Shown piece after piece: positions 21,225 through 26,643 of a stretch of DNA of 64,000 nt. The translations under genes were made by a program, and so were the position numbers. Source of the stretch: an uncultured Pelagibacteraceae bacterium (GTDB lineage: Bacteria > Pseudomonadota > Alphaproteobacteria > Pelagibacterales > Pelagibacteraceae); the NCBI GenBank assembly GCA_902583075.1, contig CACHUN010000004.1, forward strand, positions 8,680-72,679, written 5' to 3'. Numbering within the stretch: position 1 is the first letter of the stretch; each line of letters starts with the position of its first letter. A model generated the notes under the pieces. The model was not told the DNA's origin and made no database searches. It saw nothing but the letters and a program-made list of their open reading frames with translations.

Positions 21225-21788
21225 TTATCTAGGAGATCTTTTAGACAGTATCCTTTGAAGAGTTCTTCTATGCATTTTTAGTCTTCTTGCAGTTTCAGAT
21301 ACATTTCTGTTACATAACTCAAAAACTCTGTGTATGTGCTCCCATTTTACTCTATCTGCTGACATTGGGTTTTCAGGTGGGGCTGGTTTTTGATTTGGAT
21401 CAGCTAAAAGTGCCTTTTCAACATCATCTGCATCCGCTGGCTTAGCAATATAGTCAATTGCTCCCTCTTTAATTGCAGCAACTGCTGTTGGGATATTACC
21501 ATATCCCGTTAACATAATAATTCTACTTTTAATGTTACCCTTTTGAATTTCTTTTACTACCTCTAGTCCATTACCATCATTTAATCTAAGATCCACTACA
21601 GCAAATGCTGGACTTTGTGATTTTACAGTCTCAATACCAATTTTTACACTCTCAGCTTGTGTAACTGTAAAACCTTTTTTTTCCATAGCTCTAGCCAATC
21701 TTTGTCTAAATGGATTGTCATCGTCTACGATCAAAAGCGATTTATCCTCAAAATCACTTAATTTTTGGAGTGTTGGTTGGTTAATCAT
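21225..21788 (-). CDS. regA: Redox response regulator RegA/PrrA/ActR
   Basis: LTGYGNIPTAV, PPENPMSADRVKWEHI and NVSETARRL.MHRRTLQRIL.KR motifs. Confidence 0.96.
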   Translation of the reverse strand: MINQPTLQKLSDFEDKSLLIVDDDNPFRQRLARAMEKKGFTVTQAESVKIGIETVKSQSPAFAVVDLRLNDGNGLEVVKEIQKGNIKSRIIMLTGYGNIPTAVAAIKEGAIDYIAKPADADDVEKALLADPNQKPAPPENPMSADRVKWEHIHRVFELCNRNVSETARRLKMHRRTLQRILSKRSPR

Positions 21789-21856: not shown

Positions 21857-21875
21857 CATAAATGCTGCATTTATG
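21857..21875. promoter_or_regulatory. Perfect 9-1-9 inverted repeat, candidate operator over the putative -10 of the polyamine operon
   Basis: CATAAATGC-T-GCATTTATG, with TTTACA at 21836-21841 lying 17 bp upstream of TAAATG. Confidence 0.45.
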
Positions 21876-21907
21876 AAACTTGCATAAGTGATATGCAGGT
21901 TTTTTTT
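21876..21907 (+). terminator. Terminator-like hairpin in the 5' leader of the polyamine operon (candidate attenuator)
   Basis: AAACTTGCATA-AGTGA-TATGCAGGTTT (11 bp with one G-U pair) running into T8, located between divergent genes. Confidence 0.5.
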
Positions 21908-21932: not shown

Positions 21933-23111
21933 ATGCAAAAATTTAAGTCAGTTGAGGAATTAATTAATCAACTGAGACCTACAGGACCTGTTTATTGTAT
22001 TAGAAAACAGTCAATTAAATTGGCTTCTAATTACTTTCAAAAAAATTTTCCTGGAAAAATACTTTATGCGTTAAAAACTAACCCTCATCCAGTAGTTCTA
22101 AAAACTATAGTTGAAAGTGGTATTAATCGTTTTGACGTAGCATCTATAAAAGAAATAGAGGCCATAAGAAAAATAAGTCCAAATGCGAATTGTTCTTATA
22201 TGCATACGGTCAAAAGTAGAGAAAGCATTAAAGAGGCATATTTTAGATATAATGTTAAGGCCTTTTCTTTGGATACTAAAGATGAATTAATAAAAATTTT
22301 AGAAAGTACAAATTATGCGAAAGACTTAGAGTTATTTGTTAGAGTTTCTGTGTCTAATGAACATGCAGAGATTGATTTATCAAAAAAATTTGGGGCCATT
22401 AATTCTGAGGCAACTGGATTACTTAGATTAACAAAACAATATTCTAAAAAAATTGGACTTAGTTTTCATGTTGGTTCACAATGTATGCACCCAATATCTT
22501 ATTCAAAAGGAATATTTGAAATCAGTAATATAATTAAAAAAACAAAAATTATTCCAGATGTAATTAATGTTGGAGGTGGCTTTCCAACTATTTACCCTGA
22601 TCTTATTCCTCAATCTTTAGATGCTTATTTTAATGAAATTAAAAAAGCTTTGAATAATTTAAAATTGGATAAGCTTCCAGAAATTATTTGTGAGCCTGGA
22701 AGAGCGATTGTTGCAGAAAGTGGCTCAACGATTGTAAGAGTTGATTTAAGAAAAAAACAGAAACTTTATATAAATGATGGAACTTATGGAACTTTGTTTG
22801 ACGCAGGTGTTCCTAACATTGTTTACCCATCAAAAATGATAACTAATGGAAGAGTAATCTCCAAGAAATTAACATCTTTCGATTTCTACGGCCCAACTTG
22901 TGATAGCATGGATTATATGAAAGGTCCTTTTGTTTTACCAAATAATATAAAAGAAAATGATTATATAGAATTAGGACAGCTTGGAGCGTATGGATTAACT
23001 TTTAGAACTAATTTTAATGGATTTTACTCAGATGACATTTATGAAGTTGAGGATAATCCAATCATGACGATGTATGACAAAGAAGCAAATAAAGATTTTC
23101 TTGTTGCTTAA
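21933..23111 (+). CDS. Fold-type III (alanine racemase fold) PLP-dependent ornithine-decarboxylase homolog, probably an arginine decarboxylase
   Basis: YALKTNP (PLP Lys), FHVGSQ, NVGGGFP, EPGR, GPTCDS and GAYG motifs. Substrate inferred from the neighbouring agmatine-pathway genes. Confidence 0.85.
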   Translation: MQKFKSVEELINQLRPTGPVYCIRKQSIKLASNYFQKNFPGKILYALKTNPHPVVLKTIVESGINRFDVASIKEIEAIRKISPNANCSYMHTVKSRESIKEAYFRYNVKAFSLDTKDELIKILESTNYAKDLELFVRVSVSNEHAEIDLSKKFGAINSEATGLLRLTKQYSKKIGLSFHVGSQCMHPISYSKGIFEISNIIKKTKIIPDVINVGGGFPTIYPDLIPQSLDAYFNEIKKALNNLKLDKLPEIICEPGRAIVAESGSTIVRVDLRKKQKLYINDGTYGTLFDAGVPNIVYPSKMITNGRVISKKLTSFDFYGPTCDSMDYMKGPFVLPNNIKENDYIELGQLGAYGLTFRTNFNGFYSDDIYEVEDNPIMTMYDKEANKDFLVA

Positions 23112-24151
23112 TGTCAGATAATAAAAACCAATCAAGTAATAGAAAAAGTGATTTACTAAGTAAAGAGGTAGAGCATATTGATATAACTTCTTTTGACGCC
23201 AGAAAAATCGTCTCTTCAATGGAAAAAATGTCTTTCGTTTCAAGAGAGACTGCAAATGCTGCAAATATTTATAATGAGATGATAAAAGATAAAGATTGTA
23301 CAATATTTTTAACACTCGCAGGATCAACTTCTGCTGCTGGATGTATGCATATTTATAGAGATTTAGTTAAATATAATATGGTTGATGCAATAGTAGCAAC
23401 TGGGGCTTCAATTATTGATATGGATTTCTTTGAGGCACTTGGTTTTAAGCATTATCAGGGATCACAGTATCAAGATGATACAGAGTTAAGAAATAACTAC
23501 GTTGATAGAATATATGATACTTACATTGATGAAGAAGAGCTCCAAATGTGCGATAAAACTATTGGAGAAATTGCAGATCAATTAGAACCCAAAAGTTATA
23601 CATCAAGAGAATTTATAAAAGAGATTGGCAAATATCTTAAAACAAATGCGAAGAAAAAAGATTCATTGATAGAGGTTGCCTATGACAACGATGTTCCAAT
23701 TTTCTGTCCAGCGTTTACTGACTCAAGCGCGGGATTTGGACTTGTAATGCATCAAGAAAGAAATCCAAAAAATCATATCACAATTGACTCAATCCGAGAA
23801 TTTAGAGAATTAACAGAAATTAAAATTAAATCTAAAGGATCCGGCCTTTTTATGATTGGAGGAGGTGTGCCGAAAAATTTTATTCAAGATACTGTTATAT
23901 GTGCTGAACTTTTAGGTAAAGATGTAGATATGCACAAATATGCTATTCAAATAACAGTCGCTGATTCCAGAGATGGAGCCTGCAGTAGCTCAACATTAAA
24001 AGAGGCAAGCTCATGGGGCAAAGTAGATATTACAAAGGAGCAAATGGTTTTTGCAGAAGCAACAAGTGTGCTACCCTTAATAGCAAGTGACGCTTATCAC
24101 AAAGGTGAATGGAAAAATAGAGAAAGAAAAAATTTTTCCAAGATATTTTGA
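23111..24151 (+). CDS. Deoxyhypusine synthase-like protein (SpeY / homospermidine biosynthesis)
   Basis: RIYD, PIFCPAFTDSSAG, IGGGVPKNF, DSRDGACS and EASSWGK (catalytic Lys) motifs. Confidence 0.9.
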   Translation: MSDNKNQSSNRKSDLLSKEVEHIDITSFDARKIVSSMEKMSFVSRETANAANIYNEMIKDKDCTIFLTLAGSTSAAGCMHIYRDLVKYNMVDAIVATGASIIDMDFFEALGFKHYQGSQYQDDTELRNNYVDRIYDTYIDEEELQMCDKTIGEIADQLEPKSYTSREFIKEIGKYLKTNAKKKDSLIEVAYDNDVPIFCPAFTDSSAGFGLVMHQERNPKNHITIDSIREFRELTEIKIKSKGSGLFMIGGGVPKNFIQDTVICAELLGKDVDMHKYAIQITVADSRDGACSSSTLKEASSWGKVDITKEQMVFAEATSVLPLIASDAYHKGEWKNRERKNFSKIF

Positions 24152-24154
24152 TTA

Positions 24155-25036
24155 ATGATCAAAAAAATCAAAATCGGTTTAATACAAAGTAAATCTTTAG
24201 GTTCAATCCAATCTAATATTGATTTAGCTATAAAAAATATTAAAAAAGCTGCAAGGAAAAAGGCAAAGATAATTTGTCTTCCTGAGCTATTTTTAACAAA
24301 TTATTTTTGCCAAACAGAAAGTCATTCAAATTTTAAATTAGCAGAAAAAATTCCAGGAAAAATCTCTGGAATATTTTGTGATTTAGCAAAGGAGCTTGGT
24401 GTTGTATTGAATATTACTATGTTCGAAAAAAAAACATCTGGATTTTATCATAACACTAGTATCATTATTAATGAAAATGGTAATATTCTATCTAAATATC
24501 GTAAGATGCATATACCTGATGACCCGGGCTATTATGAAAAATTTTATTTCAGTCCTGGAGACCTAGGTTTCAAAAGTGTGAAAACTAAATTTGGCAAGAT
24601 AGGTCCTCTTATATGTTGGGATCAATGGTTCCCCGAAGCAGCAAGATTAACAGCTTTAAAAGGGGCTCAAATTATTTTTTATCCTACTGCTATTGGTTGG
24701 CACCCAAAAGAAAAAAAGAAATTTGGAAAATCTCAATTAGAATCTTGGATAACAATGCAAAAATCTCATGCTATTGCTAATGGAACTTATGTGGCTGCTA
24801 TAAATAGAGTTGGTGTTGAAAAAAAAGGAAAAAAAAAAATTGAATTTTGGGGTAATTCAATGATGATAGATCCTAGTGGTAAAATAATTGCAAAAGCAGG
24901 AAATAAAAAAGAAGATATTTTAGTTTGTGAAGTAGATTATAAAAAAATAGATACTGCTAGACAGCACTGGCCTTTTTTAAGAGACCGAAGAACTGAATTT
25001 TATAGAGATATTCTCAAAAATCCTAAAGATGAGTAA
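24155..25036 (+). CDS. aguB: N-carbamoylputrescine amidase (nitrilase superfamily)
   Basis: LPELF, YRKMHIPDDPGYYEKFYF, ICWDQWFPE, YPTAIG and FLRDRR motifs. Confidence 0.88.
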   Translation: MIKKIKIGLIQSKSLGSIQSNIDLAIKNIKKAARKKAKIICLPELFLTNYFCQTESHSNFKLAEKIPGKISGIFCDLAKELGVVLNITMFEKKTSGFYHNTSIIINENGNILSKYRKMHIPDDPGYYEKFYFSPGDLGFKSVKTKFGKIGPLICWDQWFPEAARLTALKGAQIIFYPTAIGWHPKEKKKFGKSQLESWITMQKSHAIANGTYVAAINRVGVEKKGKKKIEFWGNSMMIDPSGKIIAKAGNKKEDILVCEVDYKKIDTARQHWPFLRDRRTEFYRDILKNPKDE

Positions 25037-26093
25037 AAAAATTGATGAATTTAGAATGCCAGCAGAATGGGAGCCTCAAAAATCAGTTTGGATGTCGTGG
25101 CCTCATAATAAAAATGATTGGCCTGGATTATTTGAAAAAATTCCAAATGTAGTTGGAAAAATAATAAAATATCTAACAAAACATCAAAAGGTAGATTTAT
25201 TAGTCAATAATACCAAAAGTATTGGTGTCACAAGAATATATTTAAAAAAAATAGGTTGTAATATATCCAACATTAAATTTCATAAACTTAAAACAGACAG
25301 ACTTTGGTTAAGAGATTCTGGGCCAATATTTTTAGTCAACAAAAAAAAAAGAAAAAAGACAATACTTGATTTTAAATTCAATGCCTGGTCAAAATATAAA
25401 AATTTCAAAAATGATAACAAAATCAATAGCCTTATTAGTAAATATTTGAATATTAAAAGTATTTTACCTAAAAAAGTAAATTCAAAAAAATTTGTAAGAG
25501 TAGTGATGGAAGGAGGTGCATTTGATAACAATGGATCAGGCTCTATATTGCTTACAAAGGAGTGCTTATTAAGTACTAAACAAGAGAGAAATAAAGGATT
25601 CAAAAAAATTGATTACGAAAATCTATTTTCAAAATATTTAAATGCAAAAAATTTTATTTGGCTTAATAAAGGAATTGTTGGAGATGACACTCACGGTCAT
25701 ATTGATGATATTGCAAGATTTGTTTCTAAAAGTACAATTATGATAGCTATAGAAAACAATAAATCAGATAAAAATTATAAAGCTCTTAAAGAAAATTTAA
25801 AAATATTGAGTAAAAGTTACGACGAAAATGGAAAAAAATTAAAAATTATAAAGATTCCTATGCCAAGCCCAGTTGTCATAGACAAAACTCGTGTGCCAGC
25901 AAGTTATTTAAATTTTTTCATAAGTAATAAAACAGTCTTGGTTCCAGTATTTAAAGTGAAAGAAGACAAAAAGGTTTTAAAAATTTTTAAAAAATTTTTT
26001 ACAAATAGAGAAGTTATTGGTATTGATTGTAGTGATTTGATTTGGGGTTTTGGAGCTATTCATTGCATAACGCAACAAGAGCCAAAAATTTGA
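25029..26093 (+). CDS. aguA: Agmatine deiminase
   Basis: RMPAEWE, WLRDSGP, FNAW, EGG, DDTHGHID, ASYLNF and GAIHCITQQ motifs. Confidence 0.92.
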   Translation: MSKKIDEFRMPAEWEPQKSVWMSWPHNKNDWPGLFEKIPNVVGKIIKYLTKHQKVDLLVNNTKSIGVTRIYLKKIGCNISNIKFHKLKTDRLWLRDSGPIFLVNKKKRKKTILDFKFNAWSKYKNFKNDNKINSLISKYLNIKSILPKKVNSKKFVRVVMEGGAFDNNGSGSILLTKECLLSTKQERNKGFKKIDYENLFSKYLNAKNFIWLNKGIVGDDTHGHIDDIARFVSKSTIMIAIENNKSDKNYKALKENLKILSKSYDENGKKLKIIKIPMPSPVVIDKTRVPASYLNFFISNKTVLVPVFKVKEDKKVLKIFKKFFTNREVIGIDCSDLIWGFGAIHCITQQEPKI

Positions 26094-26094
26094 G

Positions 26095-26643
26095 TTAAGC
26101 AGCTTTTAAGGTACCTAATAATAATCTAAAAGGTATCAACATTACTAAAGCTACAAAAATCTTTACTGCTAAATCTCCTAAAGACAGTGTTACCCAAGGT
26201 ATTCCTGTTCCATAAAATGAAATCGAAAAGAATAAAAATGTATCAACAGTAGAACCAATTAATGAAGAGGCAAGTGGCGCAATAAACCATTTTTTTTGTC
26301 TCAATTGATCAAATATTTGTACATCCAATAATTGAGCAATAATAAATGCTGTTCCTGAACCAATTGCTATTCTTACTGAGATTAGATCAGCAAAATTTGT
26401 TGAGAAAATTAGTGTAAACAAAATACCTATTGTAAATCCTATATATACAATTTTTCTAGCAACTAATTTACCAAAAGATCTATTTGCTAGATCAGTTATT
26501 AAAAAAGCTATTGGATAACTAAATGCTCCATATGTAAGAATTTCTTGAAGACCATAATATTGAATTGGAAATTGGACTAAATAATTAGACGCTAAAACAA
26601 CCAATCCCATTAAAAATGAGAGTGTTAAAAATACTTTATTCAT
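26095..26643 (-). CDS. Queuosine precursor transporter (YhhQ/VUT family)
   Basis: ASNYLV, TYGAFSYP..FLITD, AQLLDV.IF and VDTFLFF motifs. Confidence 0.85.
   Translation of the reverse strand: MNKVFLTLSFLMGLVVLASNYLVQFPIQYYGLQEILTYGAFSYPIAFLITDLANRSFGKLVARKIVYIGFTIGILFTLIFSTNFADLISVRIAIGSGTAFIIAQLLDVQIFDQLRQKKWFIAPLASSLIGSTVDTFLFFSISFYGTGIPWVTLSLGDLAVKIFVALVMLIPFRLLLGTLKAA

Follow-up and report, generated by a model that had tools for sequence, protein, structure and literature searches.

The four genes at positions 21,933 to 26,093 of the window (the whole 64,000-nt stretch of DNA that was analysed, from an uncultured Pelagibacteraceae bacterium) very probably encode the form that an already published route from agmatine to homospermidine takes in SAR11, with aguB-aguA as an exchangeable ending. 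In this pathway (i) the decarboxylase would turn arginine into agmatine, (ii) SpeY would couple two agmatines to diagmatine (G44G), (iii) the AguA homolog would deiminate both ends of G44G, giving bis(carbamoyl)homospermidine (C44C), and (iv) the AguB homolog is predicted to free homospermidine from C44C, the guanidino groups of the two agmatines leaving as ammonia. The first three steps are predicted from published experiments with orthologs; the fourth is a proposal in print too. By stoichiometry, the aguB-aguA ending would return five of the eight N atoms of two arginines as ammonium, and the speB ending would give four of the eight as urea. The earlier note had considered this combination perhaps undescribed. 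The idea of an undescribed pathway was rejected, given that both the cluster and the pathway, the AguB step excepted, are published (PMC9992855, PMC13625781). We make no claim of a new discovery for the pathway, since it was established in 2023-2026 with the enzymes of a close relative, apart from the step catalyzed by AguB.

The identities, order, motifs and conservation of the four genes were observed directly. ORF analysis of the window placed them next to each other and in the same orientation on the + strand, at 21933-23111 (adc, 392 aa), 23111-24151 (speY, 346 aa), 24155-25036 (aguB, 293 aa) and 25029-26093 (aguA, 354 aa). The three junctions are (i) a 1-nt overlap at 23111 (TAATG), (ii) a 3-nt gap (TGA-TTA-ATG) and (iii) an 8-nt overlap (25029-25036), which bears out the tight coupling described in the earlier note. 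The products match, above the respective cut-offs, the Pfam families Orn_Arg_deC_N and Orn_DAP_Arg_deC (PF02784 and PF00278), DS, CN_hydrolase (PF00795) and PAD_porph (PF04371, 357 bits), and all carry the recognisable catalytic motifs reported earlier. With AguA as the query, 80 loci were retrieved, of which 73 have the order ADC-SpeY-AguB-AguA and the remaining seven are truncated at contig edges; the arrangement is therefore not a matter of chance, and aguBA is conserved together with the first two genes. The operon is flanked by two genes of the - strand: a divergent upstream gene for a RegA/PrrA response regulator (21225-21788; NF033791, above cut-off), found at this position in 20/20 loci of other genera, and a convergent downstream gene for a queuosine-precursor transporter (26095-26643; TIGR00697, above cut-off), which is also the downstream neighbour in close relatives. 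Contigs assembled from RNA libraries (metatranscriptomes) cover the operon genes and bridge all three junctions; they cannot prove a single transcript, because they are assembled contigs and one of them also spans the convergent aguA/queT junction; their low coverage of aguA carries no meaning. Base composition gave no sign of a recent foreign origin of aguB-aguA, the G+C content of aguB (0.295) and aguA (0.262) carrying no signal when compared with that of the neighbours (0.275-0.356).

The leader contains a terminator-like hairpin followed by a U run (21875-21903, + strand), located 30 nt 5′ of the first start codon. Its position is conserved across the genus and its sequences differ, as seen in a leader alignment from which one row with wrong coordinates (L004) was left out. 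A known RNA element was rejected, both for the window and for the leader: the whole 64-kb window gave no Rfam match at the gathering score, the leader gave 11 weak ones, each scoring far under its gathering threshold, and the hairpin has no Rfam family. A promoter scan was uninformative (22 sites vs 27.6 expected).

The first gene encodes an alanine-racemase (AR)-fold "ODC-like" PLP decarboxylase, which is likely an arginine decarboxylase (ADC). Its closest PDB sequences are the lysine/ornithine decarboxylases 2plj and 5gjm and the ADC of PBCV-1 (2nv9). The motifs K48, H179, E254 and C323-D324 are present, and P294 stands where the "MFD/MYD" helix of L/ODC has its Asp. The motif NDGTYG[TS]LFD[AG]G of the helix was seen in 27 loci drawn from the genus, of both terminal types, and in 20/20 loci of other genera. 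The gene lies directly upstream of speY, a position in which, by a published rule for SpeY-encoding alphaproteobacteria, an AR-fold ODC homolog is an ODC neofunctionalised to ADC (PMC13625781). The SAR11 "ODC" homologs of Pelagibacter and Fonsibacter that were assayed (WP_075506504, WP_099339815) decarboxylate arginine only (PMC9992855; PNAS 2023, Table 2). The window ADC shares 81% identity with the 394-aa decarboxylase of a speB-type relative and 64-65% with the copies of another genus of the family (g13), neither being a confirmed assayed sequence.

The second gene encodes a DHS homolog, SpeY, which scored 579 bits on the NCBIfam model of the G44G (caldomycin) synthase (NF002699; cut-off 500); the next model reached 306 bits against a cut-off of 434. 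Aligned with DHS (9iex_B), the protein retains the catalytic Lys and Glu (K304 for K329, E298 for E323), and non-acidic residues replace D243 (F209) and D316 (C291). CdmS of Thermus thermophilus likewise keeps the DHS Lys/Glu, with non-acidic residues at the D243 and D316 positions (PMC10981699, section 9); both enzymes have Phe at the former, whereas at the latter CdmS carries Leu and the window protein Cys. CdmS homocouples agmatine, but its system relies on a ureohydrolase, unlike that of the window. G44G was formed by 6/6 SpeY homologs, including that of Ca. Fonsibacter ubiquis (PMC13625781, JBC 2026, Table 1). From these similarities, SpeY of the window likely joins two agmatines into G44G. 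A single-query search did not find SpeY in 24/24 genomes of a sister family (f2). As regards the end product, PMC8437039 gives homospermidine as a native polyamine of HTCC1062, reports only low levels of it in two SAR11 strains and questions whether making homospermidine is the main role of Dys2; the main text of PMC10219603 offers nothing of relevance.

The earlier note had offered two routes. In one of them, AguA and AguB would make putrescine from agmatine and the DHS-like enzyme would make homospermidine from putrescine (or, in a variant considered here, from putrescine and spermidine), which is how these clusters were interpreted in 2023 (PMC9992855), and a spermidine-synthase-family gene in the genome could use the putrescine. 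This route is disfavoured because the SpeY enzymes tested to date use agmatine, not putrescine: CdmS accepts agmatine only (PMC10981699), and in E. coli the formation of homospermidine by speY genes required an agmatinase (PMC13625781). Proteins 3 and 4 speak against it as well (see below), and we regard it as highly improbable. A gene of the HSS/CASDH family (PF16653), the mark of the HSS putrescine-dependent pathway, had no match in the window's own genome (84% complete). The other route, in which SpeY couples agmatine and AguA/AguB act through carbamoyl intermediates, agrees with the experiments on SAR11 orthologs (PMC13625781, PMC9992855) and with the residues found in the window.

The third gene encodes an AguB-like amidohydrolase of the nitrilase fold, a predicted bis(carbamoyl)homospermidine amidohydrolase (NCHAH). 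It contains E44, K117 and C154, which we take to be the triad, and its best PDB matches are 6mg6 and the N-carbamoylputrescine amidohydrolase 5h8i. The AguA-like product of the fourth gene, a predicted diagmatine iminohydrolase (DIH), contains D96, H224, D226 and C346, presumably the catalytic residues. Its closest PDB sequence is 1xkn (300 bits), named agmatine deiminases scoring far lower (157-170 bits). Neither protein reaches the NCBIfam cut-off of the canonical enzymes of putrescine formation from agmatine: the best model of the AguB-like protein, TIGR03381, gave 295 bits (cut-off 410.25), and the AguA-like protein stayed under the agmatine-deiminase cut-offs (TIGR03380, 245 vs 381.8 bits). 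The latter belongs to the AguA family, its catalytic motifs are intact, and its gene accompanies speY in a genome that has no speY-linked ureohydrolase; these are the features expected of a DIH. Coexpression of SpeY and the AIH of Ca. F. ubiquis yielded C44C, and the activity of this AIH is known from coexpression alone (PMC13625781). The sole SpeY-associated AIH assayed in vitro, that of Rhizorhabdus wittichii, was active on G44G and inactive on agmatine, a combination shown for this DIH only; 9/9 AIH homologs, canonical ones included, made C44C (PMC13625781). The published DIH work revealed no sequence signature separating DIH from agmatine deiminase, and the AguB (NCHAH) step was proposed there, pure C44C being unavailable.

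The closest known system is the ODC/ADC-SpeY-NCPAH-AIH cluster of Ca. F. ubiquis (PMC9992855, PMC13625781), with the same four enzyme families in the same bacterial order and with demonstrated ADC, SpeY and AIH activities. Its accession numbers, ending in 815 (ADC), 814 (SpeY) and 812 (AIH), suggest a window-like gene order. Ca. F. ubiquis is a freshwater relative, while the window copy belongs to a marine lineage, its neighbours at 82-96% AguA identity being titled Pelagibacteraceae. Three g13 loci, whose products share 64-65%, 79-80%, 62-63% and 55% identity with proteins 1-4, are stand-ins from the family only; in length, their SpeY (348 aa) and AguA (356 aa) agree with the entries of PMC13625781 (Table S1). 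The ODC/ADC-SpeY-arginase/agmatinase cluster of Ca. Pelagibacter ubique, whose 394-aa decarboxylase is arginine-only (PMC9992855), shares the first two genes but ends in one ureohydrolase (releasing urea), whereas the window operon ends in aguB-aguA (ammonium). R. wittichii also encodes an AguA-family DIH and an ODC-like gene upstream of speY (PMC13625781), but there aguA and aguB are located away from speY, at another place in the genome. AguBA of Pseudomonas aeruginosa has the folds and the chemistry (guanidino to carbamoyl to amine) of the window pair but prefers agmatine.

As stated in the earlier note, the operon lacks a ureohydrolase, though one is encoded elsewhere in the genome. This unlinked agmatinase-family gene (G000:C5:8834-9790), which exceeds the NF002564 and TIGR01230 cut-offs and has counterparts in 11 of the 15 aguA-bearing genomes drawn from the genus, could still release urea. 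Ureohydrolases are promiscuous toward G44G (PMC13625781), and part of the flux could therefore skip AguA/AguB or drain agmatine. Together with the C44C formed by canonical AIH homologs and the coexpression-only record of the Fonsibacter enzyme, this gene would fit a cell route that is not urea-free: the first two steps would be kept, and either AguA/AguB would be dual-specific (for G44G and agmatine, perhaps also aminopropylagmatine) or the unlinked ureohydrolase would finish much of the G44G. We consider such mixed use improbable. The unlinked gene adjoins aldehyde dehydrogenase-like and acyl-CoA-metabolism genes (named from their translations), which suggests a role in catabolism. Nor does it seem to stand in for the slot enzyme, because in the genomes drawn from the genus it occurs beside both slot types, and one of the two modules comes after speY in every one of the 30 loci.

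The pair at 24155-26093 (+ strand), predicted to release ammonium, is one of two forms of an exchangeable terminal module, the other being a single speB-family gene at the same position after speY. One or the other occupied this slot in all of those 30 loci and in 20/20 loci of other genera. A survey of 120 genomes of the family, of the kind suggested earlier, found aguA in 42, slot-type speB in 76 and both in none, whereas 26.6 genomes with both would be expected if the modules were independent of each other (related genomes are themselves not independent samples); this fits two endings doing one job. On a marker tree of 31 genomes the terminal module changed state at least five times, and adc-speY follows the main split of the same tree. 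These patterns indicate repeated replacement of one module by the other. The direction of change cannot be read from the tree of slot-SpeB proteins, in which no branch was starred. We found no published description of this either/or exchange or of the repeated module changes.

The nitrogen economy raised in the earlier note is chemically sound, but gene distribution supports it weakly (urease in 8/92 speB-type vs 0/57 aguBA-type genomes), and the unlinked agmatinase could release urea. It is conceivable, though we hold it to be rather unlikely, that the family possesses a two-allele locus, in which recombination swaps aguB-aguA and speB downstream of an adc-speY core that is passed on vertically, and putative selection by nitrogen supply sets the choice: aguBA where the nitrogen of urea is unrecoverable, speB where urease is present or where a shorter enzyme saves cost.

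The compact operon of the window is a ready test case for the AguB step. The genes of this slot that are annotated as aguA, aguB or speB are probably biosynthetic and should not be read as markers of agmatine catabolism. Because the modules exchange on a strict either/or basis within several genera of SAR11, the most abundant bacteria of the sea, they offer a natural experiment on nitrogen economy.

The four ORFs of the operon, adc (21933..23111), speY (23111..24151), aguB (24155..25036) and aguA (25029..26093), all on the forward strand, were re-read on the sequence, and their lengths and junctions agree with those of the earlier note. Pfam comparisons identified the products as (i) an alanine-racemase-fold basic-amino-acid decarboxylase, (ii) a deoxyhypusine-synthase (DHS) homolog, (iii) a carbon-nitrogen hydrolase and (iv) a Porphyromonas-type deiminase, respectively. 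The operon is flanked upstream by a divergently oriented regA gene and downstream by a convergently oriented queuosine-precursor transporter gene (queT), instead of which a convergent ORF of ~425-430 aa lies 3′ of the module in loci L194-L213 of other genera. The order ADC-SpeY-AguB-AguA is retained in 73 of 80 loci of the nearest AguA relatives, the other 7 ending at contig edges. In these relatives the aguBA pair is conserved with the first two genes, and the proposed four-gene operon is real and conserved.

A hairpin resembling a terminator lies just 5′ of the decarboxylase start (21875-21903, + strand), together with a U run and the conserved sequence TTAAATT; the 86-nt leader gave z = -2.66. 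The position of the hairpin is constant across the genus and its arm sequences differ (TGCATA-N5-TATGCA type versus AAAGTTTTT...AAAAAGCTTT type). Its role may be to halt transcription running on from the genes upstream, or to serve in attenuation. All four genes are covered by contigs of four marine metatranscriptomes, and single contigs bridge each of the adc/speY, speY/aguB and aguB/aguA junctions; since one of them also spans the junction between the convergent aguA and queT genes, such contigs do not by themselves establish co-transcription.

In the decarboxylase, P294 occupies the aligned position of the Asp found in the L/ODC helix of 2plj ('MFD') and 5gjm ('MYD'), and an Asp sits four residues before it. 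This helix, which presumably sets substrate choice, has the same motif in 27 loci, of both module types, from the genus draw (37 genomes: the own genome and 36 genus relatives) and in 20/20 loci of other genera. AguB contains E44, K117 and C154, and AguA contains D96, H224, D226 and C346, motifs which we take to be catalytic. The solved sequence nearest to AguA is 1xkn (300 bits), with named agmatine deiminases far lower (157-170 bits). In an alignment of SpeY with DHS chain 9iex_B, with positions counted by hand, K304 and E298 match K329 and E323, whereas F209 and C291 stand at D243 and D316. We take this chain to be human DHS, because its numbering fits PMC10981699, in which the Thermus enzyme is described as differing from human DHS by Phe and Leu at these two Asp positions; SpeY of the window shares the Phe and has Cys in place of Leu.

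The earlier note considered two routes to homospermidine: (a) conversion of agmatine to putrescine by AguA and AguB before condensation, or (b) condensation of two agmatines to diagmatine (G44G), with removal of the guanidino groups via carbamoyl intermediates. It is reported in PMC13625781 (JBC 2026) that agmatine is converted to G44G by SpeY homologs, among them the one from Ca. Fonsibacter ubiquis (Pelagibacterales), that Fonsibacter SpeY plus AIH, the AguA-type deiminase, yields bis(carbamoyl)homospermidine (C44C), and that the AIH of R. wittichii is active on G44G and inactive on agmatine; the final enzyme is called NCHAH there, as a proposed activity. Agmatine homocoupling is established in Thermus (PMC10981699, Sci Rep 2024). 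In PMC9992855 (PNAS 2023), the SAR11 'ODC' homologs assayed accepted arginine as their sole substrate, and a gene cluster for decarboxylase, SpeY, NCPAH and AIH is described in Ca. F. ubiquis. Route (b) is therefore already known and published, and, given its match to this chemistry, very likely right for the window operon, while the agmatine-based SpeY and the G44G-acting AIH disfavour route (a). In strain HTCC1062, homospermidine is a native polyamine at a low level according to PMC8437039 (mBio 2021), which doubts that Dys2 mainly makes it.

The survey of speY with aguAB versus speB suggested by the earlier note revealed no genome with both modules (37 + 120 genomes). In the genus draw, speY is present in 30/37 genomes, followed directly by aguB-aguA in 14 and by a speB-family gene in 16. 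Genome-wide, aguA was found in 15/37, slot-type speB in 17/37 and both in 0/37; one further genome has a speB fragment not placed in a type, and four incomplete genomes have neither. Among 120 family genomes of at least 85% completeness, 42 carry aguA, 76 slot-type speB, none both and two neither; one of the 42 (G105) is marked unpublished, and the pattern is the same without it. Genera g1, g5, g7 and g14 each contain both types. The arrangement regA-adc-speY-module occurs in all 20 adjacency-checked genomes (10 of each type), hand-picked from this second draw and spread over eight other genera. In g1, aguA was found in 3/44 genomes of the near-complete draw versus 14/36 of the mostly incomplete draw, so the aguBA type is under-represented among the best-assembled genomes. 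With a single query, no speY match was obtained in 24/24 genomes (G037-G060; completeness 83-100%) of the sister family f2; thus, within the order, only the family of the window may have the pathway. A frameshift splits the slot speB of L208 (G084:C1:284600-291500; genome 100% complete), through sequencing error or gene decay, and frameshifts affect adc in L196 (G074) and speY in L029 (G016), possibly as assembly errors. The family-wide either/or pattern was not found in print, subscription papers and bioRxiv supplements being outside the scope of the search.

On a marker tree of concatenated RpoB, IleS and DnaK (31 genomes; 6/37 omitted, having no assigned module or no speY), the module state requires five changes, every one forced by starred branches. 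A single aguBA clade appears in 0/200 bootstrap trees of the marker set and is rejected by the AU test (p 1e-72). The ADC+SpeY tree (29 genomes) retains the main split of the marker tree, with one change. In the AguB+AguA tree, G008 and G031, the two members of the mostly-speB clade that have aguBA, fall in different lineages of the other clade (99/98 and 96/95); their grouping was rejected (p 4e-5) by a test chosen post hoc, with G008 long-branched. The simplest reading is that the terminal module was repeatedly replaced by recombination. An ancestor with both modules, followed by repeated loss, is possible, but the two were found together in no genome searched. In these SAR11 genomes it is apparently the terminal module by itself that moves, whereas the transferred unit proposed in PMC13625781 is speY+duh or speY+dih.

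In the own genome (84% complete), PF16653 (HSS/CASDH family) had no hits, urease had none above its cut-off, and one spermidine-synthase-family gene is present. The genome also carries a single unlinked ureohydrolase gene (L001, G000:C5:8834-9790, - strand) over the agmatinase cut-offs, whose product shares ~30% identity with the SpeB encoded next to speY in relatives; its presence weakens the claim of a wholly urea-free cell. This gene adjoins an aldehyde dehydrogenase-like gene. Most genomes, whichever module type they belong to, contain this unlinked agmatinase-family gene; in the genus draw it was found in 11 of the 15 genomes with aguA.

On stoichiometric grounds, 5/8 arginine nitrogens would come back as ammonium with the aguBA ending, whereas the speB ending would place 4/8 in urea. 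The nitrogen-saving use suggested earlier is weakly favoured by the distribution of urease over the cut-off, in 8/92 speB-type versus 0/57 aguBA-type genomes (Fisher p 0.024, overstated since kin are non-independent). A strong effect is counted against by the 84/92 speB-type genomes without detected urease and by the protein cost (647 residues for aguB-aguA versus ~290 for the speB ending). Nitrogen economy is thus a hypothesis for what drives module choice. The remaining interest of the operon lies in the predicted AguB step and in the either/or swap of the last module across SAR11.
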